Shown here: positions 20,651 to 61,256 of the stretch, piece by piece
Position numbering within the stretch: the first letter of the stretch is position 1
Layout of the letters: each line of letters opens with the position of its first letter
Assembly (NCBI GenBank): GCA_049999805.1
Contig: JBNGIO010005225.1
Span: 1 to 64,000 of the forward strand
From: Folioceros fuciformis
Lineage: Eukaryota
Reading direction: 5' to 3'
DNA: 64,000 nt
Made by a program: the position numbers and the translations under genes
Notes under the pieces: generated by a model
Told to the model about the DNA's origin: nothing
The model's input: the letters and a program-made list of their open reading frames with translations, nothing else
Databases searched by the model: none

Positions 20651-21125
20651 GGGGAGTAGGACATGAAGCACGTTGATCGCCATAAATGCATACTTCAGAA
20701 CATCCTTTGTTTTGGATATTTGGCTGGGACATGTCCTACTATGTATGTACATATATATGTAGATAGGTCAAAGAATTGAGAGTGTGCCCATATTACGGTG
20801 CCGATTAGAATGCGTGGGAAATGGATCCGTTGAGGAATTGAAGCTCGCTCCTACAGCATGCTCTGATCAAAGTGATGGCATCCGCAAACCGCCTGGCATA
20901 CGTTGCCTTTCCATGTTGGTGTCCTTGAGGCACCTCTGCCTCTGGCCCAACCTCCTGTGCGCTGTAGAAATGCATTCAGGGTAGATTTAGCGTGTGATCC
21001 TGCTAGGCCATGGCTGCCCGTGACGTGAGCAGGTATCATGGCAATACCTTCCAGGAGCGAAGTACTGACAGACAACGAAGTGGCATGGTGCAAAACATAG
21101 CAAGAAAATCAGCTGGTCCAAGACG

Positions 21126-24100
21126 ATGGTGGGCTGGAGACGAGTCTTCCAGCTACGAGGATCTCGTGTGGCAAAAACTGTTTCAGGATCAACATTGCAG
21201 CAAAAGAAGAATTCGTGGTGGCACAGGGATTTCCAAGAGGTGCGGTGGCTGGACAATTCCGATAGGCCAGCTCCTGTGTACGAGGCCCAGGTACGTGCTC
21301 CGGATCTGCACCTGGGTGGAGCAGATAGTGACTTTTGTTGGCCTGCAGGATGGGAGGGTGGGGTAATGGCCGAGATCACGGCAAGGTTATGTCAGCAGGG
21401 GCAGGTGACTGAGGCCGTGGAGGCGCTGGGAGTTTTGGTGTACATGGACTGCTATGTTTCAATCTCTCTGTTTTACGCAGTCCTGAAGGAGTGTGAGGCT
21501 AAGAAGGATTTGGCTCTGGGCCGTCTAGTTCATGCTCTGACTGTGAAGAAGGGGTATGAGTCGGACACTTTTCTGTGCAATCACATCCTGCGAATGTATG
21601 CTTCTCACGCCAAGTTGCAGGAGGCTCTGGATGTGTTCCTCATGGTTGCCACACCAGATGCCTTCACGTGGTCTGCCATAATTTCTGCGCATGTCAAACA
21701 TGGACAGGATAAGGAGGCAGTACAACTGTATTATCGGATGCGCAGGTCAAGTACGAAGCCAGACGGCCATGTGTTTGTAGCAGCACTTCAGGCTTGTGCA
21801 AAGGGAGCAGACTTAAAATCTGGGCAGCAAGTGCATGCTGATCTATTGGCTAGTGGCGTGGAGCGTAATCTGTTTGTTTCTACTTGTTTGGTGGACATGT
21901 ATGCGAAGTGTGGCAGCTTGGAGGAGTCTCGAAGAGTTTTTGACGGCCTTGACAGGAAGAATGTGGTGACTTGGAATGCTATGATAGCAGGGTATTCCCA
22001 GCAAGGCATGGGGCAGGAAGCTCTTCGTCTTTACCGTGCTATGCAAGGAGAAGGGTTGGCTGTATTCGATTCTGTTACATTTGTCTCTCTCCTGCAGGCA
22101 TGTGCAAGCGTGGGTATCCCGGCTTTGGAAATGGGAAAGGAGCTGCATGCCCAAATCGGAGAACAAGGGCTTGAGCTTGATGTGTTTGTTGCCAGCAGTT
22201 TGGTAAACATGTATGCAAAGTGTGGCAGACTGGAGGATGCCCGGACTGTGTTTGACAGAGTTGCTAATAAGCATGTAGAGACTTGGAATGCTATGATAAC
22301 AGGATATTCCAAGGAAGGCGAGGTAGAGAGCGCCCTCCATCTTTACAGAGCAATGCGTGAAGAAGGCATGGTTACACCCAGCTCTGTGACATTTGTGTGC
22401 CTGTTGCAGGCTTGTGCGAATGTGGGTGCCCGAGCATTGGAGAACGGTAAGCAGCTCCATGCAGAACTTAAAGGATACGGGCTTCACTTGGATGTTCTTG
22501 TAGCCAACAGTCTTGTAAACATGTATGCTAAGTGCGGTAGCCTGGAGGATGCGTATGGCGTGTTTCATGGACTCACTCAAAAAGACGTGGTGACCTGGAA
22601 CGCCATGATAGCAGGTTATGCACAACATGAAATGGGGCAGCAAGCCCTCTGTGTTTACGATGCTATGCAAGAAGAAGCCATCGTTGCACCGGATGCTGTG
22701 ACGTTTGTGTGTCTCCTTCAGGCATGTGCTTGTTTGGGCCCCTCGGCGTTGGACAAGGGAAAGCAGATTCACACACGAATTAACGAACAAGGACTTGAAG
22801 CAGATATCTTTGTCGGCAGCAGCTTGGTAGGCATGTACGCAAAGTGTGAAAGCCTACAGGACGCCAGGACTATCTTCGATGGACTCCGCAGGAAAGATGC
22901 AGTGACATGGAGTGCCATGATAGCAGGATACTCCCAGCAGAACATGGGGCAGGAGGCCCTCCGTCTCTACTGTGCCATGCAAGAAGAGGGCATTGCTGCA
23001 CCCGATTCTGTGATGTTTGTCTCGCTCTTGCAGGCATGTGCAAGTGTAGGCACCCTGGCTCTGGAGAAGGGAAAGCAGATTCATGCACAAACTAGAGAAC
23101 AAGGGCTCGAGGCTGATGTCTTTGTTGCCAACAGCTTGGTAAGCATGTATTCGAAGTGTGGCAGCGTAGAGGATGCTCGGGGTGTGTTTGAGGGCGTTCT
23201 TCAGAAAGATCTGGTGACTTGGAATGCTATGATTGCAGGATATTCTCAGCAGGCCATGGGGCAGGAAGCGCTTTGTCTTTACCGGGCCATGCAAGAGAGA
23301 GGCTTAGTGGTATCCGATTCTTTGACATTGGTGTTTCTTCTGCAGGCATGTGCAAGTTTGGGTACCTTGGGTTTGGACAGAGGGGAACAGCTTCATGCAC
23401 AAATCAGAGAACTAGGGTTTGAATCTGATGTGTTTGTTGCCAGTAGTGTGATAAACATGTATGTCAAGTGCGGCAGCCTAAAGAACGCCCGCATCGTGTT
23501 TGATGAACTTCATGATAAAAATGTTGTGACGTGGAGTGCCATGATAGCTGGATATTCTCAGCAGGGTATGGGGCCGGAAGCCCTCAGCCTGTACAAGGCT
23601 ATGCAAGAAGAGGGTCTTGTTGCACCCAATTCTGTGACCTTTGTGAGCCTCCTTCAGGCATGTGCTGGTATGGCTGCTTTGCAAGTGGGAAGGCAGCTTC
23701 ACGCACAGATTAAAGAAAAAGAGCTTGAAGGGGATATGCTTGTAGCTGGCGGTTTGATAAATATGTACGGGAAGTGTGGTAGTATGCTTGATGCACAGCT
23801 GGTGTTTGAGGCGTTGCCCGAAAGAGATGCTGTTATCTGGAATGCGCTGATCGCAGGATACACTCGTCAAGGAGACAGTGAAGACGTCTTTCACCTTGTC
23901 CTGAAAATGAGACAGGATGGCATACAGCCAGACGATGTCACATTCCTCAGTGTGCTAACAGTATGCAGTCATACTGGTCTAGTGAACAAGGGACGGGAGT
24001 ATTTTGAGGCTATGCCCGCACACCATGGCATCACCCCCAGGACAGATCACTACGCATGTATGGTGGATCTTCTGGGTCGTGCAGGACACCTGGACGAGGC

Positions 24101-24452
24101 ATTTTCTTTAGTTAGGACAATGCCTGTACTGCGTGGTGCTTCAGTTTGGCACTCTCTCTTGAGTGCTTGCAGCAAGTGGAGCAATGTGGAGATGGGACGC
24201 CATGCTTTCGATGAAGCGGTGGCGCTAGACAAGAAGGATGCAGCAGCATATGCCATGATGTCAAATATATACAGAGGTGCCAAGATGTGGGAGCAAGCCC
24301 AGGAAATGCAGGCGAGGAGAATACAAATGAGGGCATGGAAGCAGCCTGGCCAGAGCTGGTGGACAGACATAGGAGGAGTAGTGCATTGTTTTTTTGTTGG
24401 AGACAAATTTGCATCCTACCAGTTAAGCAATTCTGAATCAAAGCTTCTGTAA
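21126..24452 (+). CDS. PLS-class PPR protein (organellar RNA editing factor type) ending P2-L2-S2-E1-E2 plus PG box; DYW domain truncated; single exon
   Basis: Repeated P-L-S triplets with a 312-bp period (VTWNAMIAGY / VTFVSLLQAC / SSLVNMYAKCG), then HYACMVDLLGRAG, WHSLLSAC and WKQPGQSWWTDIGGVVHCFFVGD, then a stop. No HxE/CxxC deaminase motifs. Confidence 0.95.
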   Translation: MVGWRRVFQLRGSRVAKTVSGSTLQQKKNSWWHRDFQEVRWLDNSDRPAPVYEAQVRAPDLHLGGADSDFCWPAGWEGGVMAEITARLCQQGQVTEAVEALGVLVYMDCYVSISLFYAVLKECEAKKDLALGRLVHALTVKKGYESDTFLCNHILRMYASHAKLQEALDVFLMVATPDAFTWSAIISAHVKHGQDKEAVQLYYRMRRSSTKPDGHVFVAALQACAKGADLKSGQQVHADLLASGVERNLFVSTCLVDMYAKCGSLEESRRVFDGLDRKNVVTWNAMIAGYSQQGMGQEALRLYRAMQGEGLAVFDSVTFVSLLQACASVGIPALEMGKELHAQIGEQGLELDVFVASSLVNMYAKCGRLEDARTVFDRVANKHVETWNAMITGYSKEGEVESALHLYRAMREEGMVTPSSVTFVCLLQACANVGARALENGKQLHAELKGYGLHLDVLVANSLVNMYAKCGSLEDAYGVFHGLTQKDVVTWNAMIAGYAQHEMGQQALCVYDAMQEEAIVAPDAVTFVCLLQACACLGPSALDKGKQIHTRINEQGLEADIFVGSSLVGMYAKCESLQDARTIFDGLRRKDAVTWSAMIAGYSQQNMGQEALRLYCAMQEEGIAAPDSVMFVSLLQACASVGTLALEKGKQIHAQTREQGLEADVFVANSLVSMYSKCGSVEDARGVFEGVLQKDLVTWNAMIAGYSQQAMGQEALCLYRAMQERGLVVSDSLTLVFLLQACASLGTLGLDRGEQLHAQIRELGFESDVFVASSVINMYVKCGSLKNARIVFDELHDKNVVTWSAMIAGYSQQGMGPEALSLYKAMQEEGLVAPNSVTFVSLLQACAGMAALQVGRQLHAQIKEKELEGDMLVAGGLINMYGKCGSMLDAQLVFEALPERDAVIWNALIAGYTRQGDSEDVFHLVLKMRQDGIQPDDVTFLSVLTVCSHTGLVNKGREYFEAMPAHHGITPRTDHYACMVDLLGRAGHLDEAFSLVRTMPVLRGASVWHSLLSACSKWSNVEMGRHAFDEAVALDKKDAAAYAMMSNIYRGAKMWEQAQEMQARRIQMRAWKQPGQSWWTDIGGVVHCFFVGDKFASYQLSNSESKLL

Positions 24453-29502: not shown

Positions 29503-31416
29503 ATGGCCGTCTGCGGCCATGCTGCCACTGTTGCCGCCTTGGGCCATCGCAGCTGGGTCGATCCTCGTCGCGGAGGAGCGCTAGAGCTGCGGCTCGTATC
29601 CCAGGTCTGGGGATCCTGTGTGGGTGTTGCAGCAGGGCGGTACCATCCCCTCCTCGCTCCCTCCTGCCGATGGGTCGTCCGCGCCGCCAGGCAGAAGCTA
29701 TGGAAGAACCGGCAGCCGGAAGTGCCGCAGGTAGCGGTGAAGAAGGTTCTGGACGCCGTGCAAAAGGAGGGCGCCAATGTCCAGGAGGTGCTCATGCGCA
29801 AGGGCGCCTTCATCAAGCCGAAGGATTGGTTCTTGGTGCTGGACGCCGTCGGGGAGCAGCGGCGATGGCTTCTGGCTCTCGAGGTGTGTTGGCACGTCAG
29901 GGTGGTGTGTCATGTTGTATGCTTGCTTCCTTCCTGTTTGATATGTCGGGTGATTTTTGTCTCAGTCCTGTTTGCTTGCTTCCATGCTTGACTTGTTGGG
30001 TGATTGTGTTGTTTGTGTGGCACAGATTTTCAGATGGATGCAGCTGCAAAAGTGGTACAAGCCTGATAATGCCTACTACTCAAAGATGATTTCCATCATG
30101 GGCAAGGAGAAGCAGCTGAGGTTGGCAACGTGGCTCTTCGCCGAGATGAAGCGCAAGGGGCTCCGTCCCAGCACGTCTATGTACAACGCCCTCATCGCTG
30201 CACAGGTGAGCGCTCCTTTTCAATTCCAATTCCAGTTGTCGGAATGAGGAGAAGGCGAGTAAAGGGAAAGTTGAATGGTCCTGAGGGTGCAAGGAGTGCG
30301 TGTGTGTGCATGCAGGTGGCCATGACGGACATCCCCGGCAGCCTGGACAAGGCAATGAGTATGTTGCAGACTATGAAGGAGAGGAAGCAGTCGCAGCCAA
30401 GCATCGTGACATACAACACCCTCACCAAGGCCTTCGCTCAGGTGGGAGACGTGGAGCGGGTGAATTCCCTGCTGGCCGAGGCCGAGGCGATGCAGTTGAC
30501 TCCCAACATGTACACATACAACGGGATTATCTCAGCATACGGGAAGCTGGGGCATCTGGAGAGGATGGAGCAGACCTACGAGCTGATGAGGGCCCGGAAG
30601 CTGAAACCGGACAAGGTGACCCTCAACTGCCTCATCCACGCCTACGGCAAGGCCGGGCACTTCGACACAGCGGAGAAGCTGCTGCGGCGGATGATGCAGT
30701 CCAAGCAGGCCCCGGCGGACGTGAAGACATTCAACTCCCTCATCCATGCTTACGGGCAGGCAGGAAAGCTGGAGGAGATGGAGGTGGTGGCGGAGAAGCT
30801 CATCGACACGGGATTGGCCCCGACCTCCTCCACCTTTGAGTGCATGCTGGCGGCCTACTCCAAGGCGGGCGCCTTCCAGAGCGTGCAAGGATGTCTGGAC
30901 GCCATGCGTGCCGCCGACTTGAGGCCGTCCTACTCCGCCTGCCGGTTGGTGCTGGAGGCCATGTGCGAGCGCGGCGAGGCGGACTCGGCCGAAAAGCTTC
31001 TGCGGGATCCGTTGCTGGCTCCGTGGCTGGCGGAGGAGACGCTCTACAACGGCGTCCTCAAGTCCTATGCCGTGGCCGGTCGTAGCGCGGACATCGACCG
31101 CCTGCTGACGAAGATGGAGAAGAGCGGCGTCCGGGTGGAGAGGCCGGTGCTGCTGGACCTGCTGCAGACGTACGCCAAGGAGAGGAATTCCTCTCCGTCC
31201 GCTGGATGCGCAGAAGAGAAACAGCTGGAGGGGGACAGCTCTAAGGCTGGCAGCATGCTCGAGCAGGCTGCCTTAGAGGATTCCTGGTTTTGCGGTGATG
31301 ATAAACCGGAACCAGATCCGGGTGAGATCCCGGGCTTGTCAGGACTCGGATCCGCACCCTCTTCGCATGGCTTGGTAGCAGATGAACCAGATTTGGTTCA
31401 CCATGCTGCATGCTAG
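29503..31416 (+). CDS. PPR5: P-class PPR protein, PPR5/EMB2453-like, 3 exons
   Basis: WLLALE|IFRWMQLQKWYKPDNAYYSKMISIMGKEKQLRLATWLFAEMK..MYNALI is characteristic of plastid PPR5. Further P motifs (IVTYNTL, MYTYNGII, KVTLNCLI, VKTFNSLI). Introns at about 29884-30025 and 30206-30316. Confidence 0.8.
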
Positions 31417-34372: not shown

Positions 34373-36217
34373 CATGCATCTGCACGCATATTCGGAATCG
34401 GAATGGATCGTTCAAGGCAAGAAGCACTTCAATCTTGGAGCAACGCTCAGGGAGATCAAGGCAATGGCAGAAGGTTGCTTAGCCTCCCGCCCCTCCCTAT
34501 ACACCAGATACCGAGACGTATGCTTCTTCTTCCGCCATCGCCTTCGAGCATTAGTCTACAAGTACGAACATAACCGCTGCTAAGCCCGTCCATAGAATGT
34601 GCCCCAGCGCGGACTCACGTTAGCCGCGTCTACGATGTACTCAATCACTCCTGCGTGTATCGCAGCTACCCAACACATCCTCCAATGGCCGCTACTTTCT
34701 CCATTTTCTCGCTCGCTCTGTTCCACCTCCGCGTCTCCTCTCCTCTCCTCTCCTCGCTTTCCTTTCCTGCACTTGCGTTGCGACCTCCGACTCCTCCACT
34801 CCCTGGATCCGTGGATTCCTCCCATCGGCTGGCCGTCTTTGTGAGGGGATCCAAAACCTAGGCCATGTATCCAGTCCCAGCCGCTCACCGGCCCCACTGC
34901 CTCACGCTTTCCTTACGATGTAGCTTAAAGTAAGGCACTCCATCCATCCCTTTCGCTATTGAAGGCCGTACCATCTTGCAGCGAGCTTACGAGGTGAGTG
35001 CAGGGCGCCAAAATTTCTCCTCTCCCTTGCAGTGTACGTTGCTAGCGTTCCTGAAGCTCGTGCACAGTCTTTGCAACTCCGCTGCATGGCTCGGTGCTAA
35101 CGCTCTGATCTACTTCCCTCTTGTGCAGTGTTCTAGAGTTCTAGACGGATGTGCATCCGTCAAGCCGTTCTTTGTGCACGCTTCACAGTCCTCGGTTCAC
35201 GATTTGTGCAGGCAGCTGGTTGAGCGATTGGTGAGGGCTGGCAATGGCAAGGCTGACGACCGGGTTACTGGCCTGGTTGTGGAATACAAGAAGCCTGTCT
35301 TCCCTCTCTCATAATCTCACAGCACAAGCACAAGGTGACAGGCAGACGTAGCGCAGGCCAGCTACCCACCAAAGCTTTCCCTCCTCTTTTCTCTCTCCCC
35401 TCCACTCTACACCACTCCACTGCACTCCACTCCGCTGCTCTCCTCCCTTGGCCTGCAGCGGCCTCTCCTCTCCTCCCCTCCCATCCTCTTGCACTCCTGC
35501 ATCTCTCTGCTCTCCTGCCGCCTCGCCTCTTTTCTTTCTTCCCTGGGACCACGCGCTGTCGGCGCTCGGACCAGGCACTCCGTCTTGATCTCCGAGCGCT
35601 GCCCCTTCCGCTTCCCCGGCCCTTCGCCGCGCGCTCTGCGCCGCCAATTGCTTCTGCCGCCGCCGCCGCTTCCCACATCTCTTCCTTGTCTCTTGGCCTT
35701 CCCTGCGCCTCTCTTGGTCCTCTGCAAGCTCTCTCTCACAGCTGCAGCGCCCGGGGCCCGCGATTTCCTGCGGATCTGTTAGGGCGGGCTGTGAGGAGCC
35801 GGAGCCGGGTGCAGCTTCGCCCGCCCAGCACCGACCTGCGGGATGCCCCGTCTTTGATGCTGCACGGCCATGTCTTGCCTTCGGCCCGCCGGGAAGCTGC
35901 AATTTCGGGCTCGGATGTCCGCTGGGAGATTCGGGGAATTGCCAGGACGGTGGCCTTCCCGAAGTGGCATATATGTCGTTCTGGGAATGCTTAGCGTAGC
36001 AGAAGGGGTGTGACGGACATGCCATGATCCAGGGCGTGGGGTGCGGTTGTGGCTGCGGACTATGGCTCGCGGAGCTGGTGGCGGGAGTTTCATGAGGACG
36101 GAGCATCGGGGCCGTGCATGGTGTGTGTTGCCGGGCACGTGAGTGTCAGTCGTGCGGAACCAATCGTGCAGTGCAGGAAGGCTGAGAGCAGGGTTATCTG
36201 AGATAGATTCTGGCAGG

Positions 36218-39200
36218 ATGCCTCCCAAGCCAATGGCTACGCGCGGCGGGGGAAAAGGTAAACAAGAAGGCTTGGACAGCGACCCTGCCCATCAGCAACC
36301 AGGCTCTCTTATGCACTCCCTCTATGTCGTGTTCGCCGAATCTGGAAAGACTCCCCTGTCCGGGAGGGAGGCTCTCTCACGAATTTTCGAGAAGCGGTTG
36401 ATGCTGCCGTCCAACGGGGGAAAGATGCAGGAGAGGGCCAGGAAGGCTCACAGGAATCTGGAATTGGAGAATGAGGCTATCAAGCGTCTGAGGAAGAGTT
36501 CTTACTTCTTTGAACTCACCCGGGGGACCTTCATGCTATGTAGTGCGCTAGAGGATGCTCCAGATGATGGGGATAACAGGAAGAAGACCACTGTGCCTCA
36601 AGAAGTGATCGACGAACAGAAGTCCTCCTTCCCTTCCAGAGAAGCAGGTACGTGCTTCTCGTTGGAGATCGATACGCGTCTATCGTGGCGCATGTTTCTT
36701 GCACGGGGTGTACTTGCAGTGCAGGCAGGGCAAAGATTATCAGTCCGCTTTTTTGTGGCCATGTATCTAGAGGACGAATCCGTTGCCTGTGTGGTGTACG
36801 TACATGGGATTGGAATGCCTGATGTTGTTTCTGATGTAGCCCTAACAGCAGTGCAACTGTTGTTAAGAATGCCTTTTCCGGATACTGATTGCCTCCGTCC
36901 GATAGGTACATGTGTACCTGCTTTGCATTTCCGACTCGGATGTTGCTGATTAACGTTGTCGGGTGCTGCAGGGAGATCCCGCAAAAGGAAGTCAGATTCC
37001 TCCCCTGAGCTGGATGAATCAACTCGGACTGTGGAGGGGAGACGATCATCTTATGAACCGGAGAAGAGGCCACGACCCACGGTGGACGATGACAGTGACT
37101 GTGATTTCGAGACCATGGTGTTGAAACAGGTGCCCGAATATCTCCCGACTCCAGTCGCACTTGATCCAAGACTTCCGATTCCGAACGACAGCATTCAAGA
37201 AGAGTCCAGGAAGGCTGTCGCAGAGCCGCCCGCTACCCTTCCAGTTTCAACTGTACCTGATGGCATCCCGGAGACTTCAATGGCGGATGAACAACGTCGA
37301 TCGGGTGATGCTAAAGCTTCTGCGGACGTCCTAGGTGAGCTTTGTACTGTACCAGCTCTTTTGTAAAGATAGAACGAACCGCTTGAATGTTGTTCACTGG
37401 CCTTTGCGAATAGTGCTAATCTCAAAGCATACCCGATTCTGACCTCGTTCGATTATTGGGAGTGTTCGATGCCTGGCTATGGCTGGTTTGAAGTGTGCGA
37501 TGACATTTATCTCCCCATTTCGCAATGTATGAGTAGTGTCACCTAGGCATGGAGGGTTTATGCCTAGAGAGTAGTCCCTACTAGGTATGGCCCCAGCAGC
37601 GTTGAGCTGAAGGAAGTTCGGGTTGAGGGCCCTGTATTGACACCTCACGTCCTCTGCCTGCAGCAGCTCAGGAGAAGCAGCTTACAAACCTGCCACTGTG
37701 CAACGTGGTCAAGCCATTTACAAACAGACGGAGGCCTGGTCATCCAAATTGGCAGGCTGCACTTTCAGTGCGACAGGCAGCCTTTACCAAACGTCATGCT
37801 GTCTACACTAACAGACATGCTGTAAGAGCAGCTGACAGGCAGAAGGAAGGTTCTCTGGATGCTCAGCAAGGTGCAGGCACTTCCTCTGAGGGTAGGAACA
37901 GCCATCGCCGTCTAGCTGCGAAGCTAGCGAGCCTTCGTCTTGCACAGAGTCTGAAGCCCAGTGAACTGGCCAGGATTGTACACCAGAGAGATGGTGAACT
38001 GCCTACCCGGGGTGCCAATCATAGTCTACTCCGACTGTGCACCTCGCGTGAAGGACAAACTGTGCAGCAGTGGACTCCGACAAGCACACCATGGAAAGAC
38101 CGGAGGTGCAGTCGCAAGGTTAAGGAATCATGGCAGTGTGACAGAGAGGCTGCTAAGGATCATAAGCTGTGTGAGCATCATTTATATGTTAATTATTATA
38201 GGAAGAAATTCGCCGGCTTCAAGCGAGGGAAGGCTGCTCGCAGTGAGGACAAGCTTGAGTGCAAACCCTTGGACGATGAAGTGTCGGGGAAGTGTGATTC
38301 TACAAACAAGGTCGATGGCTCTGCTAGTCCACAGAGAGTGCTTCCCTGTTTTGGTCAGCCGAAGTGGCCATCGGAACAACTTTCGGCATGCACCGGTAAG
38401 GAGACTGATAGGGGCCTGTCAGCTGGGAAGCAGATTCTTGTTTTGCCGGGAAGCAGCTTACCGAAGAACCTGTCGGATAGTAGCAGTGATGGGGAGAAGC
38501 TATCAGGGAAACACAGCGCAGCTTTGCAAAGGATCAGCATGGGCCTTAAACCTCCAAAAGATCCTTCAAGTAGGAAGCCTCGACCGTCCCCCTTTCAAAG
38601 AGGGAAACAGATCATGGTTCTAGCTGGAAGTGATGTTCAGAAGGATATCGAGAAGGAGCAAAGTACTCGTCAGGACTGTGGTAGGTTTCAGAGTGCCTTT
38701 GGTGGAATGCAGAACAAGGGCAAGTCTGTTCCGAGAATGGATATTCACAGAGTGATCAATGGCCTTGTTTCAACCCATGAGCCTATTCCTGGAAGTCTTA
38801 TCGAGAAGGTTTTGTTGCGGAAGCAGGCACAAATGCTGCCAAGCCATCTGAGCTCAGGAACGTCAGCCAGTCATCAGGGTAGCATAGCACATGGTGCAAG
38901 GGATGTGAAAGGATCTCCTTCGAGAACTCCGCAACAGCCGCATCAAGATACGACTACGAAATCCTTGTATTCTTTTCTGCTAAAGTACCGGTTGGTCAAG
39001 CAGCAAATGAAGAAGGCTAAGGCAAGTGGAGCAGATGTTTCAGAGAGTGACTTCACACGGAATTTGCCTACTAACTTTCAGATTGGCATGAGGAGTGAGA
39101 TATCAAAAGTCACTGGGCTGCTTGATTCTGGACATTCCAGAGGGGCTCCTGCCAAGCTGGTGCAGGGCGTTAAGGTTGTAGAGGCTGTAAAGTGCAGAGC

Positions 39201-42200
39201 TGTATTGGCTGTAAGTAATGAAGCACAGCACAGTGTGAGGACGCATGAATACGAGGGCGCAGGTGTGCAGCTTGTGGATAGTTCGGTGGATGAGAAGGGA
39301 CTGTCCAACAACAGCAAAGAGTTGCCCCTCACACCCGAAGAAGTTCGAAAGCAATCTGGCAGGAAGCGGTTACATAATGGATTGCATAAACTTCCAGGGT
39401 TTCAGGGTATGTCAAGAGTTTCTGCTTCCTCAGAAGGTAACTTTTCACCATCCTGTTGCCGTAAATTTCTCCTTCTTAAGGCGTCTTCAGATAAGCTGTG
39501 TTTGTTTATGTCCTACTCTAAGTCCTTCGTGTTACAGCCACACAGTAGGTTCTCCGTCACCTATCGAACAAAGAACATAATGACAATATGCCGTGCAAGT
39601 GGCATGAGTCTGTCCCTTGCTGATTGTGGGAAATAAGTAGATGTGAAAGTGAGCTTACGTTCTGCTATCTTGATCGTAGGTGTGGAATGAATGACCCCTA
39701 GGACAGTTACGTGCCTGCATGGTACCAACGCCCCAAAGGCTTCCAATTTGAACCTGCTGTTGTAGAGCTAGAACTCAAGGTATTGTCAGGGATGGATCAG
39801 AGAGAATCTTGGAATGCTTGCCAAGGCCCTTGATTTAATCCCTAGCTAACCTGAGGTAATTCTGGCAGCCAGATACCCTCCTGCTGCAGATCCCGCGGAT
39901 GAATACTGTATGTGGTCGAAGATATGCCAAGTCTGCTGATTTTGCTACTTACTATCTATGGCTGGCATTCTTTTGCAGAAATGCCAATGAGCAGTGATTC
40001 TGATGGCTCAGGCTTCCGAAATGTGAGAAAATCTAAGAATGCACGAAAGTCATTCATCCCAAGAAGTTTGGATGAGCAGGCCCTTAACAGAGAAGGGCGC
40101 AGCGCTGGAAATCAAAGTCTCCCTTTCCCTAAAGGGTTGATGGACTATTTAAAATTGAAGAAGGGGCATGGTGGCTCTCTAGCATGTGCTGTCCCGAAGT
40201 TCCCAGTTGATGGTGATAGGAAAGTGAAAACTCGGCTGAAGAATGCAGGGTTTGTGATTGCTCAGTGTTCAAAAGCATTTGATGCACAACGGGCCATTGG
40301 AGGAGGCTCAGGGCGAGCCCATCCTGTTGAAATCCCAAGAAGTTCGGAAGCAAAGTGTTTGCAGGATAATACACCTGCAATTAATGAGGTGTCAACCAAG
40401 CAGCGAAAGAAGACTTTGCAGATAACAAAGATGGTTGACAAGGAGCAGTTAGCGGTTGTTACTTCTGCGGCAGAACCTGAGCCTGTATCCGTGCTTGGTT
40501 TGAAATCAGACTTTGTGGATCTGAACAAGGTATCTGACATCGAGGTTGCAGCCATGAATGTGGAACGAGGAGGATCCCAGCCATCTTGCATCACGCCAGA
40601 TGAAACACGAGTATCTAACAAGGGTGTAAAAGAGGAGGCTTACCCTTCCAACCTTTTGAGTGATACTACTGAATTGATGGATTCAGTGGTTGGAGAGAAG
40701 CCTGCGACGGCTCAACTTGGGTCACTTCCTGCTCTAGAGTTTCAGCCAGCGGTACAATCAAAGTTGGATGATTTGAGTGTGAAGACGGCTGTGAATGATG
40801 CTCAGGGAGAAGAATTGGCATCAAGCAATGCATCAGCCGTCACAGAAGACAATGATTTGACACCAGAACCCAGTTGTGACAGACAGGAAGGAGCAGTTGT
40901 GGGCTCTCTCACTGCAGATGGAAGGCGTGGAGAAACGTTGCCCAACCTGAACGAGGATAAGCCAACCAGTGGACGAACACGAGACGTTTGGTTCTTTAGA
41001 GGCAAGCACCCTCGTGAAGTGGAGGAATTCTGTGCAAGAAATACAGTAAATGACAACCTTAAATCTCGTGAGAATGGGGCTGTAGTGGATGTCATGCAAG
41101 CACCAGTTGCGAGATGCTCTGAACATGGGCATGCACCTTCGCATACCTGTGAAAAATCACTTTGGGACTTGGGAGAGGAGTCCGGAAACGGTCAAGAACA
41201 GGTTAGCTCTTCTCCGGTGGGCTCTCCTTTGGCACGGGATGGATTTTCGCAAGGGAAACGCTTGACACCCGTAGATCTGCGACGTTCATGGTTTCCAGAG
41301 CGGCAGGAAGAGCTCAGTTTGTCTGGAGAGGCTCCAGGGCAGTATCCTATGAATGTGAGTAACATTCAAGCTGCTTTCAACAAGGGATTGCAGCCCCATC
41401 CACCGTCGGCAGTGATCGCGACAGCCCAGAAGTTGAATGGTCAAGGGGTGGAATCTGGTTGTCTTTTAAACAAGATGCTCCCCGGCAAGCATATGCTTCA
41501 CGCGCAAGCAACCAGTATTCAGGCAAACAGTTCTTTGCTGAGAGATTATGCACGAGCACAGGTGTTTTCTGACCTGCCATATAGCATAGAAGCAGGTTAT
41601 TTGAAAAGTGGGATAAACTTGTCGCCTCTGAAGTCCATAGCTGCGATTGATAGGCAGGGTACCGCTGCCAGCGCCTCACCGGGATTGGACATCGCCAGTC
41701 GTCTCCAGACTACGTGCAGAAGACCGGCGGAAAAAGATTTAACTTGCAGTTTGGTCTCTCCACCTGTCGTTGCGAATGGCCCCGGGGCATTCACCAGGGG
41801 CAGTGGGTCTCTTTCCCTCTCTGGGCACCCTGAACTTGATTCTCGTGGATTACCAAATATTCGAAGTTTAGCAGGCTATGCGTATGAAGGGGGTCTGTCC
41901 ATGAACGATCAGCGTTCCGTTGCCTGGAGAAATTCTGAAGAAGAAGCAGGGTGTTGTGGGAATCCGAACAGCCACGGCCTGGCAGTGAGTGTCGCAGGAT
42001 TTCCACAGGACGCTGGCCACAAGTTCTATGACTTCGGTCTAGGTAGAAAGGAGTCGGACAAGCACTCTGGACTGAAGGTGGGGATTTTGCAGGCGAAGGA
42101 AGTAGTTGTGCTAGACGACGATCCTCCGGATCTTAACCAATTGGCCCTGCAGCATAGTCAGCAGAATGGATGGCAGTGGCCCTATGCTTCTGTTTCATGG

Positions 42201-42524
42201 TCCGGCGAGACGAGCTCTCCCAATTCGAAGACCGCTGCTGCTGTGAAAGAAAGCTTGGCTCCTCCCATGCGCAAGGATGGGTCGTCTCTTCTGGCCAGAA
42301 TAAGCTTGCAAGCAATCAGCGATCCCACTGGTGGGCGAAAAATAAGTTTCGTGCCCAGTAGCCTGGCCTACAAGACTTCAAGACCGAGAGTAGATAGGAT
42401 CACTGTTGCGGAGGAGGGTGACGATGACGACGGGGAGGCAGATCTGGGCTTACGGCTTTCAGGTGGCTCATGTGCAGCTCGCCCAAAGACCACGCGTTGC
42501 TGCAATTCTGCTGCAGCAATATAG
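36218..42524 (+). CDS. Large (about 1700 aa) putative nuclear regulator: N-terminal HARE-HTH-like domain, WRC zinc finger, C-terminal EAR-like motif; 4 exons
   Basis: Exons 36218-36647, 36972-37334, 37664-39436 and 39979-42524 join through phase-1 GT-AG introns into 1704 codons. Contains C-x9-C-x10-C-x2-H (RCSRKVKESWQCDREAAKDHKLCEHH), an RKRK NLS-like motif and DLGLRL. Confidence 0.75.
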
Positions 42525-43110
42525 AGATCTAGGCACGGAAACTCTTGGAGGGCTGCTGCTACATAGAAGCGTTGAGCTCCATACTGCTGCCTTTCTCTCT
42601 TTTCATTCTTACATCGGTAGTTTGAATTCCATTGAACTGGTGGAGTCCACGGCGGCGGATCTGTTGCTGACGTGTACCTGATGAGTAGGGTTTAGGATTA
42701 TATGCGCGGTCTGAGGTTTGGCCATTTGGACCTATTTTTTGCATCAGGATCTGCGTAGTTAGCTGAACTCCTGATGCGCGTCGCAGCTTACCAGCGTGTA
42801 CAATATGTATAACTAAAGTTGCTGGCTGGGCTTTGTCGTTAGGGGAGATGAAAAGGCGAGGCTGGGCTGGGCTGGGCTGTGCTGAACGTGTGGTTCCTTT
42901 GATACGGCTGGGGGCCCCGCCATTCTGCCGTGGCCGATGTTGTTGTACGCCACAGCCTTTTTATCCCGACGTCCAAGCTCGAGCACGCGCTCCAACGCAA
43001 ACCTCACAATCTTGCTGCCTTTGGGGCTGCAACGATCGTTCCTGTGAATCCTTGGACCTTGAGGGTTGCTGGCTGCGCTGCCAGACTCAATCCGAAGAAA
43101 AGCAACAGCC

Positions 43111-43772
43111 ATGGCTGTAGCCACGGCCTCAAGGAGCCTCGTGCTGGCGAAGCTGGCTCCGCTCTCCTCCGACTCCGGAATGCCTGCACTGCACGCTGGC
43201 AGGATCAAGGTGGCGGATGCTGGCACGTCGTCATCGCAGAGGCAGCTGGTGGTGAGGTGCTCCAAGGCGGACGGCCCAGGCCTGCGCAGGCCTTCAGCTC
43301 CCTCCTTATCTCCGCCTCCGTCGCCGACGGCCCCTGTCCCGCCTTCCAGCTCTGCCGCCCCGGCACCTACCCCGGCCCCTGCGCCGACTCCTTCCGTCTC
43401 TGTTGCGCCGCCAACCCCGGCAGCCTCCACCTCCGGCGTCACCGTCGAGTTCCAGAGACAAAAGGCCAAGGAGTTACAAGAGTTCTTCTTGGACAGGAAA
43501 TATGAGCAGCAGGCGGAGCAGGGACGAATCTTCGGATGGACCAGAACTAATGAGATTAGGAATGGCAGGTAGGAGGAACGCAGCGGGCTGCATGTGATGT
43601 TACATGCCCCTTTCGTCTTAGCTTCCTGACTCACCCTCGGCGTTGTGGCCATTGCAGGTGGACAATGTTCGGGATTGCAGTCGGCCTTTTGACAGAATAT
43701 GCAACTGGAGCCAGCTTTGTCGACCAGCTTAAGATTATAGTCTCCAATTTGGGAATCTTAGATCTGGATTGA
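43111..43772 (+). CDS. OHP2: One-helix protein 2 (LHC-like family), 2 exons
   Basis: Transit peptide, Pro-rich linker, GVTVEFQRQKAKELQEFF..FGWTRTNEIRNGR|WTMFGIAVGLLTEYATG..DQLKIIVSNLGILDLD*; intron 43569-43658. Confidence 0.93.
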
Positions 43773-51705: not shown

Positions 51706-52570
51706 AATTCCTGCCGCAGGAGCTGTTACGCTCAAGTACTTTGGGCGTAACAGCCTGCGGCAGACNNNNNNNNNNNNNNNNNNNNNNNNNNNNNNNNNNN
51801 NNNNNNNNNNNNNNNNNNNNNNNNNNNNNNNNNNNNNNNNNNNNNNNNNNNNNNNNNNNNNNNNNGCGCAGCGCAGTGCGGTGCGGTGCACAACAATCAA
51901 TTCAATCAAAGCATAACACAAGAATCGTGCATGCCCGGCGCGAGTGCGAGTCCAGGTTTTAATTTCCCGAATGCCTCCGTTGTAGATGTTCAGACTCGGT
52001 GGACAGGACCTGCGTTCTCGCTGCCTGGCCTGGACCGCCTGCCTTAGCGTCGCTTTGTTACAGTATGAATCGGAAAATCGTCGCAAGCCTCCCAGAGCAG
52101 TTCTGTTATCTGGAGAATCTGATATAGCCTTTACCACTTTTTGGTGTCTTCTCTGTCGCACGGGAGCCCTCAAATTCTCCTGACAGTTATTGAGGTTCTC
52201 TATGCCAGCTCATCTCATATCCTGACGTTCAGGCGCGACATTTGTTGCACAACTCCCCTGAAAAGCGGTGGACCGATTTCTCGGATACAGCGATGTGACT
52301 CCGTTCTCCAAGCGTTGCCGCCAATACCAAAAATGTTCTGGAGGGTCGCAATGCGCGAGGCCTAGGAGATGGGAAAGCTTCTGTACATGGGAAACAGACT
52401 TTGAGCTGGCTCTGTTTCGCAAAGTCTAGAGCGTTGCAACTCCTCAGAATCGCACTCGACGTGTCCAAGCTTTGTTCCAGACCGACCATGCTCGATCACT
52501 GGCTCTTGGTCTGTAGGTGGGCAGTCCAGCGACACTGCAGGTTCGTCTAGCTGATTTGCCTCGAGCATCC

Positions 52571-55500
52571 ATGGAGGAGACCTTCGTTCCATTGCAAGGT
52601 ATTCGAAACGATATTGCTGGACGTTATGCTTGCTACAAGCATGACTGGCTGGGTGGCCTCAACGCGGGCATCAGGTGGGTGATGTGAACTCTGCTGGGAT
52701 TTCTCATCTTATCGGCTCCTAAGTACTAACTCCAGCCTGGGATTGGAGTTTCCGTGTTGCTATTGCAGGATCTTTGCACCCACCACGTACATTTTCTTCG
52801 CTTCAGCTATCCCCGTCATCTCGTTTGGAGAGCAGCTCGATCGAGACACAAGTAATCTTTAGCAGGGATATTGGATTCGTCGTTTTTCATTATAAGCTCT
52901 AGATCTCATTCTGACTGCAGATGGTATGCTCTGTGCGTAGATGGGCAGCTGAGTGCAGTTCAGACTCTTGCATCTACTGCAGTCTGTGGTGTCATACACT
53001 CCATCCTGGGGGGACAACCCCTCCTTATCCTGGGAGTGGCTGAGCCTACTGTCATCATGTACACTTTCATGTACAACTTTGCCAAGGGCCAAACCAATCT
53101 GGGTCCACGCCTGTTTCTGGCGTGGGCAGCTTGGTACTCTCCATGTTCCTAAGCCCCGGCCCCAAACGTCTTCAATTATTAAGCATAACTGCAGCCGCTG
53201 AAGCTGCTCATTTTTCCTGTCATTGATCGTTACAGGGTGAGCGTATGGACCGCAGCCATGTTGTTTGTACTGGCAGTTCTTGGGGCATGCTCCATCATCC
53301 ATAGGTTCACCCGTCTTGCAGGGGAGCTCTTTGGCATGCTCATTTCGGTTCTCTTCATGCAGCAAGCTGTCAAAGTAAGAACGAAAAAGTCAACTTCTCT
53401 CTTCCTCGGTTCGCAGTTCGAGAGTTTCTCTCTAACAGAGTGCTACAACTTCGTGGCCTGTTCCTGCAGGGTGCCATTGAGGAGTTCCGTGTCCCAAAGC
53501 GAGAAGATCCGTCAGAAGATCAGTTTCAGCATCCCTGGCGGTTTGCCAATGGCCTCTTTGGGCTGCTACTGTCATTTGGCCTCCTGCTCACTGCACTCAA
53601 GAGCAGGAAGGCAAGATCATGGCGTTATGGATCAGGTGAGCCCAGCAGAATGAGGTACACGGCAGCCATGTTCCAGGAATATAGTGGCTGAGCAGAATGA
53701 GGAAAGTCACGTGATGAGCATGTCCCCTTGCAGGAGCCCTCCGCGGATTTGTTGCTGACTATGGAGTACCACTCATGGTCCTGATATGGACGGCAATATC
53801 TTATTCGCCGGGGAAATCCATTCCCTCAGGCATTCCAAGACGACTCTTCAGTCCTACTCCCTGGTCACCTGGAGCATCGAGCAATTGGACTGTACTCAGG
53901 GTGAGCATCAGACACGCTGCTCATGGTAAAACTCTGGTCCTGCTCCATACGCGACGCGGGTTAAAAATTGTGCGTTTCGATGGCAGGAAATGAAGGAGGT
54001 CCCTGCGGTGTACATTGTTATCGCCATAATCCCAGCAACAATGATTTCTGTTCTGTATTTTTTTGATCACAGCGTGGCATCTCAACTGGCACAGCAGAAA
54101 GAGTTCAACTTGCGAAAGCCACCGTCCTTCCATTGGGATCTACTGCTTCTTGGTTGGCTGGTATAGCCCTCGTCTAGTATCCACATCCAATCAGTGATCG
54201 TGAACTCTACGTCCTTTGCATAATGCCTTTTGATTTCTCCAGACAATCATGTGCGGGCTGTTGGGAATACCTCCCTCAAACGGAGTACTGCCACAGTCTC
54301 CCATGCACACCAAAAGCTTGGCCACTTTGAAGACTCAGGTGCCCCACGTGATCAATAACTTTTGGTGTTGCTCTGCTCTGCATCTTCCTGCTTTGGTCCT
54401 GAGTCCTCAAGGAGTGGTACTAATTTGCACCAATTCCGTTCGAGTGGTCAGCTTATTCGTGAAAAATTGGTGAAGACTGCGAAGATACAACTCCAGGAGA
54501 GGGCTACAGTTGCTGAAATGTGCACCAGCATGCAGCAAGCATTTAATCAGATGGAGAGCCCACTGGCGTTCCCCTCCACAAGGGTAAGCCGTAGGGTATT
54601 AACGCTGTTCATGACCGAACTACGCGTAAGGCATTTGTGATAGCTGTCTCTAAGGTGAATGGCGATAAACGCTGCAGGTCATGAAGGAGTTCAAGGGCAG
54701 CATAACCCAGCTAGCAGCAGAATCTGGAAAGGCTGACCTTATTGTGGACACAAGCATTTTCGATCCCGAGAAGGACATCGATGACCTCCTTCCGGTAGAA
54801 GTGAAGGAGCAGAGGCTGAGCAACTTGATGCAATCGATGATGGTGGCAGGATGCGTTGGAGCTATGCCCCTGATCAAGAGAATTCCCACATCCGTACTCT
54901 GGGGCTACTTTGCCTACATGGCTATCGAAAGTCTTCCAGGAAACCAGTTCTGGGAGAGGATTCTTCTCCTGTTCACGCCGTCAAACCGGCAGTTCAAGTT
55001 AGTGACCGAACTTTCCTGCGGAACCCAGCTGCATGCGACTAACAAATTTAGGCNNNNNNNNNNNNNNNNNNNNNNNNNNNNNNNNNNNNNNNNNNNNNNN
55101 NNNNNNNNNNNNNNNNNNNNNNNNNNNNNNNNNNNNNNNNNNNNNNNNNNNNNCGGCAGAGTGCTCGAAGAGGCGCATGCGTCTTTCGTGGAACGGGTGC
55201 CATTCAAAATCATCACGATCCTCACCATCTTCCAGTTGTGTTATCTTGTGGCCTGCTATGCCATTACCTGGATCCCGCTTGCAGGAGTCCTGTTCCCGGT
55301 TCTCATCATGATGCTAGTGCCTATCCGTCAGTTCATCCTACCCAGATTCTTCAAGGCACAGGATTTGGCTGAGCTAGACGCTGCTGACTACGAAGAGGCG
55401 CCTGCCATGCCTTACAGCAGCTCCGTGAAGGTTGGAACCACAGTAGAATCGCTATAATGCGTGGGGCCCGAATCTGTTCTCTCATACATCGTTTCTTTTC

Positions 55501-59481: not shown

Positions 59482-60924
59482 TCATGAGGATGCAGGCAAA
59501 TCCTTCACAAAAGCATCAAGAGGCTTTCCGATGGAGAACACAATAAAGCCGATCTTTCTCAATGCCTCCACGTTGAGAAGGTTACGGCCATCAAAGATGA
59601 ATGCTGGCTTCTCCATGTTGTCGTATATTTTCTGATAGTCAAGGGTCTTGAACTCATCCCATTCGGTGATGATGCAAATGCCATGAGCTTTGTCGGCGGC
59701 GGCATAAGCATCCTTCTCGACCAGAACATGCTCCAAAGAAGCAGGGGTCTCGGGCTGCAGGTGCTGGGGATGATCCCAGTCAAACTTGCTCATGGTCAGA
59801 TCCTTCCTGATCTGTTCTTCAGTGACCTGGGGATCGTAGATGCTAAGTTTGGCCTTGTCTCCAATCAAACCCTGGCACACGTCAATGGCAGGTGTTTCTC
59901 GTGTATCACCAGTGTCTTTCTTGAAGGCAAAGCCGAAGATAGCCACCTTCTTGCCCGAGACAGTGTTGAACATGGATGAAACCACTCGCTTCACAAAGCG
60001 AGACTTCTGATAGTCGTTGATCTGCACCACCTGCTTCCAATAGTTAGCGACCTCTGTCAGCCCGTTGCATTCACAGATGTATACAAGGTTGAGGATGTCC
60101 TTCTGGAAGCAGGAGCCGCCAAACCCCACGCTGGAACTCAAGAAGCGTGATCCAATACGAGTATCCTTGCCGATGGCGTACGCCACTTCCGAAACATCAG
60201 CACCGGTAGCCTCGCAGAGGGCGGACATGGCATTGATGGAGGAGATCCTCTGCGCCAAGAACGCATTGGCCGCAAGCTTGGACAGTTCTGCAGACCACAG
60301 ATTTGTTGTGATGATGCGGTCTTCCGGCACCCAGTGAGCATAGACCGCCTTGAGAGCAGCAACAGCCTTCTGGCCCTCGGGAGTCGGTCGTCCACCAATC
60401 AACACACGGTCAGGGTTCTGCAAGTCCTCGATAGCAGTCCCTTCTGCCAGGAACTCAGGGTTGGACAAAATCTGGAAGTTGATGCCCTTGTTGCTGTGAG
60501 TCAAGATCTTCTCAATAGCCTCCGCCGTTTTCACCGGGACAGTGGACTTCTCCACGACAATCTTATCTGACTGGGAAACATCCGCGATCATGCGAGCAGC
60601 ACTCTCCCAGTACGTCAGATCTGCCGCCTTGCCAGCTCCCAGTCCTCTGGTCTTGGTCGGAGTGTTGACGGACACAAATATGATGTCGGCCTCGGCGACA
60701 TACTTCTCCACATCGCTGCTGAAGACGAGATTCTTTCCCCTGCAGGCCTTGACCACTTCATCAAGCCCCGGCTCGTAGATGGGAAGGTCATCGCTGTTCC
60801 AGGCAGCAATTCTCGGCTTGGAGATGTCGACAACGTTGACTTCAATGCCAGGGCACTTGAAAGCAATCATAGCCATCGTCGGGCCCCCGACGTATCCGGC
60901 ACCAATGCAGCATATCTTCACCAT
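59482..60924 (-). CDS. UGD: UDP-glucose 6-dehydrogenase, 480 aa, single coding exon (5'UTR intron at about 60958-61287)
   Basis: [62 protein letters not shown] and FDGRN. Confidence 0.97.
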
Positions 60925-61256
60925 TTTGCAGATCTGGCCTTGGCCTTGACTGCGATCTGCCACACAAGCAAAACAGACAGACGTTAGCGAAACAAAAAAA
61001 GAGAAAAGAAAAAAAAAATGGAATAGACGGCAGCAAGCATCTGGCAAAACAGATATGCCTCATCCAGAGAGCCAGATCCAGAAACAAGCATGTGACAGTG
61101 ACCTCAAAAAACCGACACCAGCACAGATCGGGAAGCCTTGCACAAGCAAAACCCGTACAAAAGCTGAGAACTGCCTGGATCCCTTCCGTGCCAGCCAGGC
61201 TCCGCACGGATAGAGGATGAAGAAAACAACAAAACATGACTACGGTAACCACGACA

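Follow-up and report, generated by a model that had tools for sequence, protein, structure and literature searches.

A four-exon gene and its transcripts

Four exons on the forward strand of the window (the whole 64,000-nt stretch of DNA that was analysed), at 36218–36647, 36972–37334, 37664–39436 and 39979–42524, join into a single open reading frame (ORF) of 1703 amino acids. The joined coding sequence is 5112 nt long, 1703 codons and a stop, with no internal stops, and GT..AG borders are found at all three introns. The ORF starts with the ATG at 36218, with no other in-frame ATG between it and a stop at 36140–36142, and ends with the stop codon at 42522–42524. Rich in Ser, Ala, Gly and Pro, the protein is divided such that exon 1 encodes aa 1–143 plus one base, exon 2 a low-complexity acidic/basic stretch with RKRK and KRPR clusters, exon 3 aa 265–855, and exon 4 aa 856–1703. 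The neighbouring genes are consistent with a land plant; one of them encodes a PPR protein of the PLS type that has an E motif.

Transcript evidence comes from two runs, X1 and X2, which are taken as RNA runs solely on the basis of their intron-free contigs; runs X3 and X4 gave no contigs matching the window. A 4639-nt X1 contig with no differences from the window covers 35900–36643, 36968–37332 and 37662–39436, being colinear with exon 1 and splicing it to exons 2 and 3; its joints, shifted by +4 and +2, read GT..AG and fall at 36647/36972 and 37334/37664. A second X1 contig (6077 nt, depth 91.8) carries the joint 39436/39979, with an exon-3 side of 28 letters, below the bridging rule of 31 letters. 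Run X2 derives from a relative that is 90–95% alike and shows the joints of introns 1 and 3, including the 5' border of exon 2. Ten substitutions separate the window from X2 in 36218–36376 among the differences listed (40 of 107): nine fall at third codon positions and are synonymous, and the tenth replaces L by M.

An orthologue from another organism, P0005, is a protein of 1406 aa read off one 5108-nt contig, with the same order of modules. An 11,019-nt contig carries pieces of it, P0001–P0004, each in an ORF of its own, and P0005 is therefore read as the spliced form. The exon 3/4 junction falls within the uninterrupted P0005 ORF; exon 2, its basic clusters included, is without a counterpart in the orthologue transcript.

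Could exons 1–3 and exon 4 come from separate transcripts, or could the mRNA mostly retain intron 3 and end after exon 3? We regard such a gene-model artefact as very improbable. No single X1 contig covers the whole gene, the joint between exons 3 and 4 has its short 28-letter side, and there are also pieces of intron 3 and a second joint from the same donor, 39436/39680, at depths of 5.1–8.1; however, the joint 39436/39979 occurs at far greater depth in the 6077-nt contig and again in an X2 contig, the P0005 ORF passes through the same junction on one contig, and exon 4 contains conserved blocks that are in frame. The initial annotation had proposed four exons spliced into one ORF, and this model is borne out by the GT..AG-bordered ORF, by X1 contigs that lack all three introns, and by the single ORF of P0005, with the borders of introns 1–3 where they had been placed (for intron 3, by the joint with the 28-letter side). 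The four exons, in other words, make up a genuine plant gene that is expressed, and its product is a long, mostly unstructured protein of nuclear type.

Conserved islands, a WRC-type finger and an EAR-type motif

The window protein and P0005 are identical at 584 of 1332 positions (44%), and overall identity in exon 4 is approximately 30%. As judged from the alignment of these two sequences, conservation is concentrated in short islands, where "conserved" means between two species (n = 2 full sequences). Aligning P0005 in five rows with the translations of the individual exons scattered the fragments along the full length, and that alignment was left out as a profile. All islands lie on the forward strand. 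The first is the N-terminal domain (36281–36565, aa 22–116; 79 of 96 aligned columns identical to P0005), followed by a block beginning EGRNSHRRLAAKLASLRLAQSLK (37888–37980, aa 340–370; 28/31 identical) and by a zinc finger with a basic tail (38071–38229, aa 401–453; 43/53). A KQI[LM]VL.GS motif then occurs twice: the first copy, with a Ser/Asp-rich run behind it, spans 38428–38493 (aa 520–541; 17/22) and may be SUMO-interaction-like, and the second spans 38602–38637 (aa 578–589; 10/12). A longer block that starts with KSLYSFLLKYRLVKQQMKKAK and ends with ESDFTR (38899–39093, aa 677–741; 46/65) belongs to no Pfam family. Exon 4 holds FPKGLMDYLKLKK (40107–40184, aa 899–924; 16/26), YPMNVSNIQAAF (41322–41393, aa 1304–1327; 15/24), LNKMLPGKHMLHAQ (41451–41522, aa 1347–1370; 15/24) and a C-terminal block, SFVPSS...EEGD, with an acidic run and an EAR-type DLGLRL (42345–42470, aa 1645–1686; 32/43).

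The zinc finger is a divergent WRC-type CCCH finger. Its core, C-x7-WQC-x10-C-x2-H (that is, C-x9-C-x10-C-x2-H), occupies aa 413–437 (38107–38181) and corresponds to aa 317–341 of P0005. The WRC family, PF08879, is the only Pfam family matched in either orthologue, with E 6.6e-4 and 19.8 bits here and E 9.7e-4 and 19.2 bits in P0005, over profile positions 5–32 of 43; both scores lie below the Pfam gathering cut-off of 28.6 bits. When the protein was shuffled 20,000 times, the CCCH spacing appeared in two of the shuffled versions. The namesake Trp-Arg-Cys triad is replaced in both orthologues by W-Q-C, with Gln for Arg. A WRC finger with a W-x-C signature had been placed at 38101–38181 in the initial annotation; the core position, the Pfam match, weak as it is, and the shuffles uphold that assignment.

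How does this protein compare with known carriers of WRC fingers? The preprint bioRxiv 10.1101/2025.01.03.631214 gives C-x7-WRC-x10-C-x2-H as the conserved pattern, with one Zn per domain, describes the WRC domains so far studied, GRF and JMJ28 among them, as DNA-binding, and cites WRC-dependent chromatin targeting for JMJ28. The finger here resembles the GRF domain (PF08879) in its C-x7-W-x-C-x10-C-x2-H spacing and the basic stretch that follows, but differs in having W-Q-C for W-R-C, a Pfam score below the cut-off and no QLQ domain. Also in contrast to GRFs, in which a miR396 target site adjoins the WRC-coding region, the window has no site complementary to miR396 with three or fewer mismatches, in a scan that bulged sites would escape. 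Typical GRFs, moreover, are three to four times smaller. JMJ24 and JMJ28 of Arabidopsis (KDM3 group) offer a second comparison, being long, non-GRF, chromatin-related proteins with a WRC finger; unlike in them, Pfam finds neither JmjC nor RING domains here. In detail, the four exons (E ≤ 1) contained no match to QLQ, JmjC or RING, and P0005 (E ≤ 10) none to QLQ or JmjC, in agreement with the earlier statement that neither QLQ nor JmjC is visible.

At the other end of the protein, DLGLRL (aa 1677–1682, 42441–42458) is identical in P0005. It is followed by 21 residues here and by approximately 35 in P0005, and so is not at the extreme C-terminus. EAR motifs are defined in sequence as conserved LxLxL or DLNxxP, and DLGLRL is of the former type. 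LxLxL motifs bind TOPLESS, and the classic EAR context is an acidic run followed by D-L-x-L-x-L close to the C-terminus. An LxLxL anywhere in the protein is expected often by chance (12,281 of 20,000 shuffles), so that the motif by itself says little, and what counts is where it lies and that it is conserved in the one pair of orthologues compared. If DLxLxL is required to fall among the final 60 residues, only 40 of 20,000 shuffles contain it. With land-plant EAR repressors of the LxLxL class, which include AUX/IAA, SUPERMAN-type proteins and NINJA, the protein shares a D-L-x-L-x-L preceded by an acidic stretch close to the C-terminus, an arrangement kept in P0005; the remainder of the protein is unrelated to these families. 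The coordinates, the identity in P0005 and the 32/43 block all agree with the earlier report of DLGLRL behind an acidic run at this site.

The N-terminal domain and its possible likeness to HARE-HTH

The initial annotation had read the N-terminus, where SLMHSLY begins at 36305 (aa 30), as HARE-HTH-like. HARE-HTH is the winged helix of ASXL proteins and of bacterial RNA polymerase delta, a fold of three helices and a beta-hairpin. The likeness lies in the N-terminal position, the length, the helix/Pro-Leu/helix pattern and a terminal aromatic-rich, hairpin-like stretch; against it, there is no profile match, the hhalign result is non-significant, and low-confidence models show no winged helix. 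Pfam gave no match to HARE-HTH (PF05066) in the exons at E ≤ 1 or in P0005 at E ≤ 10; few matches whose E exceeds about 0.1 pass the filters of HMMER. Of the two domains for which a Pfam search had been proposed, WRC was thus recovered, weakly, and HARE-HTH was not. Nor did Pfam match an ASXL-type ASXH/DEUBAD domain or a C-terminal PHD finger in this protein or in P0005. A profile search of the PDB with the N-terminal alignment returned nothing relevant: its one match, to the tail of histone H2B (E 0.7), is taken as noise from a basic stretch.

AlphaFold models are available for exon 1 alone (mean pLDDT 48.7) and for aa 25–118 from two sequences (mean pLDDT 61.8). Both are all-helical with no hairpin, both contain a long helix at aa 67–93, and their pTM values are 0.25 and 0.28. 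Being low-confidence models built from one or two sequences, in a setting that favours helices, they are too uncertain to argue either way. The same uncertainty makes structural comparisons with the aa 25–118 model meaningless: Foldseek found no matches in the PDB, and VIA-align returned 4303 chains at Z ≥ 2, the top rows of which are all coiled coils or long helices with Z ≤ 5.0. With hhalign, the domain scored 13.5 (P 0.043) against 25 bacterial PF05066 domains above the Pfam cut-off, a shifted window scored 14.5, and the best of the other 35 sliding windows of the same protein, serving as decoys, also reached 14.5. In the local alignment, helices 1 and 2 and the conserved Pro all fall in the register expected of HARE-HTH, and with -mact 0 the YFFEL-TRG-TFML stretch aligns with the wing. 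In a language-model look-up in the ESM Atlas (7.7 million clusters), the top match of both orthologues is an ASXL1 HARE-HTH cluster, at 0.89 and 0.86; these matches share 158 and 154 features, and nine of ten same-family matches reach 170.

Together, Pfam, the PDB and hhalign give nothing significant for the earlier HARE-HTH claim, with which the ESM Atlas alone agrees; a HARE-HTH-like winged helix is best treated as a lead. An alternative, to which we assign chances just short of even, keeps the WRC and EAR modules as they are and takes the N-terminal domain to be neither a HARE-HTH nor any other winged helix, but a helical module peculiar to the lineage, which might serve in dimerisation or protein docking and whose likeness to HARE-HTH would be coincidental. 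The helical models with their long helix favour this alternative, although their low pTM, their one or two input sequences and the helix-favouring setting count against leaning on them. The blank for PF05066 at E ≤ 10, an hhalign score equalled by a decoy window, and ESM feature counts that fall short of the same-family level point the same way. Pulling in the other direction are the hhalign register, the alignment of the aromatic stretch with the wing, and the fact that the top ESM match of both orthologues is the very family that had been named earlier from the sequence pattern.

Distribution, proposed function and meaning

Relatives of the protein form one cluster only among 1.84 billion representatives, and the family has been seen in three organisms. 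The sole database relative of exon 3 is P0001 (50% identity, E 1.4e-105). Word-based searches found no relatives of the N-terminal exon, either among longer proteins or among those of near length (two-sequence profile), and no full-length relatives of P0005 between 773 and 2461 aa. Such searches see cluster representatives only, with P0005 and P0002 standing behind P0001, so that these blanks are weak evidence. Two pattern scans of metagenomes gave 590 and 488 matches, not one of which was confirmed. In the literature searched, no publication brings HARE-HTH together with WRC; the WRC domain is mentioned alongside the EAR motif or TOPLESS only in what appear to be general reviews and surveys, and alongside hornworts only in what appears to be a leaf-shape review. 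The combination of WRC, EAR and an unclassified N-terminal domain seems to be unreported in this literature, and the "Other" architectures of bioRxiv 10.1101/2025.01.03.631214 could include a similar one. The unfamiliar architecture and narrow distribution that had been suggested at the outset are consistent with the single cluster and the three blank word-based searches.

What might such a protein do? We propose, with about an even chance of being right, that it is a lineage-restricted corepressor adaptor tethered to DNA or chromatin; the chromatin-associated repressor role suggested earlier would be of this kind. The protein would act as a nuclear adaptor, anchored on DNA or chromatin through its WRC-like finger in the way known from the WRC domains of GRF and JMJ28, possibly with help from the N-terminal domain. 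A TOPLESS-type corepressor would be brought in by the C-terminal EAR motif of LxLxL type, and the long stretches of low conservation may be flexible linkers bearing further docking motifs.

A competing explanation, which we consider rather unlikely, is that the protein is not a transcriptional repressor at all: the CCCH finger would serve in RNA binding, nuclear import or structure, DLGLRL would be an export signal or degron-type motif, and the whole would be a scaffold with some other role. In favour of this explanation, RNA binding is common among CCCH fingers, LxLxL arises easily by chance, the Pfam results contain no repression-linked domain, and several further conserved motifs have no known meaning. 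Yet the finger fits the WRC spacing and WRC is its sole Pfam family, the WRC domains studied so far bind DNA, and an acidic run leading into D-L-x-L-x-L near the C-terminus is the EAR context.

The corepressor adaptor can be drawn more boldly, as a lineage-restricted plant protein in which an ASXL-type HARE-HTH that reads DNA or chromatin, a WRC finger and a TOPLESS-recruiting EAR motif are fused, and from which intron-3 retention would yield a form without the repression tail. This fuller version strikes us as distinctly unlikely. If it is true, the protein would combine a two-headed tether with a corepressor hook, for which there is no described counterpart, and HARE-HTH and WRC would be joined in one polypeptide for the first time. 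The reach of the finding is limited to three organisms, its function is predicted, and its most unusual element, HARE-HTH, is only a lead. Most known WRC fingers belong to GRF growth regulators or to a few JmjC demethylases, and a protein that joins a divergent WRC finger to a conserved EAR motif, with an N-terminal domain outside known classes, would widen the set of WRC architectures. It would also exemplify how a lineage can assemble a repressor anew out of short linear motifs and a finger that binds DNA.

A four-exon gene and its transcripts

Sequence reading combined with a stop-to-stop frame listing found four long plus-strand frames within 35800-43000: exon 1 (36218-36647), exon 2 (36972-37334), exon 3 (37664-39436) and exon 4 (39979-42524), all bordered by GT..AG. 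As the initial annotation had proposed, these splice into one reading frame (5112 nt, 1703 aa, zero internal stops), and the positions that it gave are correct: the N-terminal stretch starts at 36305, the CCCH core is aa 413-437 (38107-38181) and DLGLRL is aa 1677-1682 (42441-42458). The gene is confirmed, and no second copy was found within the window. A phmmer search with exon 3 against 1.84 billion representatives returned a single protein, P0001 (E 1.4e-105, 50% identity), whose cluster, from another organism, has members on two contigs: four ORFs of exon size on one of 11,019 nt, and P0005 on one of 5108 nt. Since P0005 strings these four pieces into one 1406-aa ORF, it is best read as an orthologue's spliced mRNA. 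The orthologue differs from the window gene in having no counterpart of exon 2 and one extra intron in the exon-4 region.

Are exons 1-4 carried on one transcript, or are exons 1-3 and exon 4 transcribed separately? Contigs of four sequencing runs, X1-X4, were placed against 35900-43000; X3 and X4 gave no contigs matching that interval. In X1, which is taken as RNA and contains 0.86 of the words sampled, a 4639-nt contig carries exons 1, 2 and 3 with zero differences from the window and with introns 1 and 2 excised precisely at the predicted borders. A 6077-nt contig carries exon 4 and its joint to exon 3, the exon-3 side being just 28 letters, below the 31-letter rule. The intron-1 and intron-3 joints also occur in X2, from a different organism that is 90-95% alike. 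Separate transcripts are unlikely because the P0005 ORF runs unbroken across the site matching the exon-3/exon-4 junction, and the X1 and X2 joints likewise argue for the single transcript.

Intron 3 (39437-39978) is retained in part of the X1 contigs (39409-39707, depth 8.1; 39678-39908, depth 6.5), and an alternative joint, 39436/39680, is also present (depth 5.1, 26-letter side). Retention brings an in-frame stop at 39634-39636, and the frame after acceptor 39680 stops after three codons; both products would end before exon 4 and the EAR motif, or the transcripts would be targets of decay. Judging from contig sizes, the X1 contig with exons 1-3 extends ~1755 nt past 35900 (to 34145) and the exon-4 contig ~3025 nt past 43000 (to 46025), which could represent a long 5' leader or fusion with neighbouring transcripts. 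CT-rich tracts lie at ~35340-35700.

A divergent WRC-type finger and an EAR-type motif near the C-terminus

At E <= 1, WRC (PF08879) is the sole Pfam family in the four exon translations. The match covers profile positions 5-32 of 43 at E 6.6e-4 and 19.8 bits against a 28.6-bit cut-off; P0005 gives the same match (E 9.7e-4). The spacing C-x7-W-x-C-x10-C-x2-H is exact in both proteins and arose in two of 20,000 shuffles of the window protein. According to a preprint, the conserved pattern is C-X7-WRC-X10-C-X2-H, each domain binds one Zn and folds Zn-dependently, and WRC domains also occur outside GRFs in several architectures, for example in JMJ24 and JMJ28 (bioRxiv 10.1101/2025.01.03.631214). 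In the window finger, the namesake Arg of the triad is replaced by Gln, and we therefore name it a divergent WRC-type finger: the proposed CCCH finger stands by its spacing and Pfam match, whereas the triad and the score fall short of a canonical WRC. The Pfam scan (E <= 1) found neither a QLQ nor a JmjC domain in the exon translations, in agreement with the earlier reading, and no miR396-like site was found in the window at up to three mismatches. GRF identity is rejected for want of QLQ and a miR396-like site, and KDM3-type identity for want of JmjC.

LxLxL-type motifs recruit TOPLESS-type corepressors. DLGLRL, the sole LxLxL of the window protein, follows an acidic run as previously described and is unchanged in P0005. 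An LxLxL anywhere is unremarkable alone (12,281 of 20,000 shuffles), and DLxLxL within the final 60 residues is rare (40 of 20,000). Its surrounding block is the best conserved of exon 4, which elsewhere is ~30% identical.

The alignment of P0005 with the window protein has 584 identities in 1332 positions, concentrated in islands: aa 22-116 at the N-terminus (79/96), 287-312 (17/26), 340-370 (28/31), the finger at 401-453 (43/53), 677-741 (46/65), 899-924 (16/26), 1304-1327 (15/24), 1347-1370 (15/24) and the DLGLRL block at 1645-1686 (32/43). The long, weakly conserved linkers carry many short motifs. One of these, KQI[LM]VL.GS, occurs twice and is conserved (aa 520-541, 38428-38493, 17/22; aa 578-589, 38602-38637, 10/12), with a Ser/Asp-rich run after the first copy that, together with the motif, may resemble a SUMO-interaction motif. 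Among the 40 of 107 X2 differences listed, nine of the 10 substitutions in 36218-36376 are synonymous third-position changes, the other being L47M, compared with at least 30 substitutions and five small deletions in the 274 nt immediately upstream.

The N-terminal domain

Is the N-terminal domain a HARE-HTH-like winged helix? We put the chances at about one half. The top ESM Atlas match is an ASXL1 HARE-HTH cluster, both for exon 1 (0.89, 158 shared features) and for P0005 aa 14-106 (0.86, 154), values at lead level and below the 170 features typical of same-family matches, from queries that are not independent because they are 82% identical. Pfam HARE-HTH has no match in the exon translations (E <= 1) or P0005 (E <= 10), and a two-sequence profile run against all PDB sequences found solely a histone H2B tail (E 0.7). 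Low-confidence AlphaFold models of exon 1 alone (mean pLDDT 48.7) and of aa 25-118 with a two-sequence alignment (pLDDT 61.8, pTM 0.28) contain helices only, the hairpin being absent; with the second of these uncertain models Foldseek gave zero matches and VIA-align generic long-helix matches alone (Z <= 5.0). For reference, 81 genomes from one bacterial phylum, reached via a 16S primer search, were scanned for PF05066; 26 had matches at E <= 0.001, 22 of them over cut-off, and 25 over-cut-off domains, all bacterial, were excised and aligned. Against these, hhalign scored the two-sequence alignment at 13.5 (P 0.043), with helix 1, Pro and helix 2 aligned as a HARE-HTH would predict; over 36 sliding 95-column windows, the N-terminal window scored 14.5, as did a far C-terminal decoy, so this comparison does not tell the two apart. 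The HARE-HTH assignment of the initial annotation is not confirmed.

Neighbourhood, distribution and proposed role

The neighbouring genes fit a land plant: a P4-type phospholipid-translocating ATPase (lipid flippase; 5777-9169, -, long single ORF, 1130 aa), a PPR protein of the PLS class that carries an E motif (E 3.6e-10; 21069-24452, +, 1127 aa) and a P-class PPR protein (30070-31416, +, 448 aa), both apparently intronless, and a UDP-glucose/GDP-mannose dehydrogenase (59482-61059, -, long single ORF, 525 aa). An ORF at 43063-43572 (+), Ala/Pro/Ser-rich at its start and without a Pfam match when taken singly, may be the first exon of a downstream gene; it ends in a ...FGWTRTNEIRNGR stretch that is reminiscent of a helix motif in light-harvesting-like proteins. 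Assembly gaps of exactly 100 N lie at 443-542, 51766-51865 and 55054-55153.

Word-based searches and metagenome scans found no relatives beyond the P0001 cluster, a blank weakened because the former see cluster representatives only and plant coverage had no positive control. No report joining HARE-HTH and WRC was found in the literature searched; the few papers that mention WRC domains alongside TOPLESS, hornworts or an EAR motif appear to be general reviews and surveys, the preprint's WRC-architecture tables lying outside the search. The HARE-HTH label and a repressor function are predictions. As read from its sequence, the predicted architecture adds a new variant to the WRC proteins, and the product is most likely a lineage-restricted nuclear adaptor, in which the divergent WRC finger would serve as the tether and the conserved EAR motif would recruit a corepressor.
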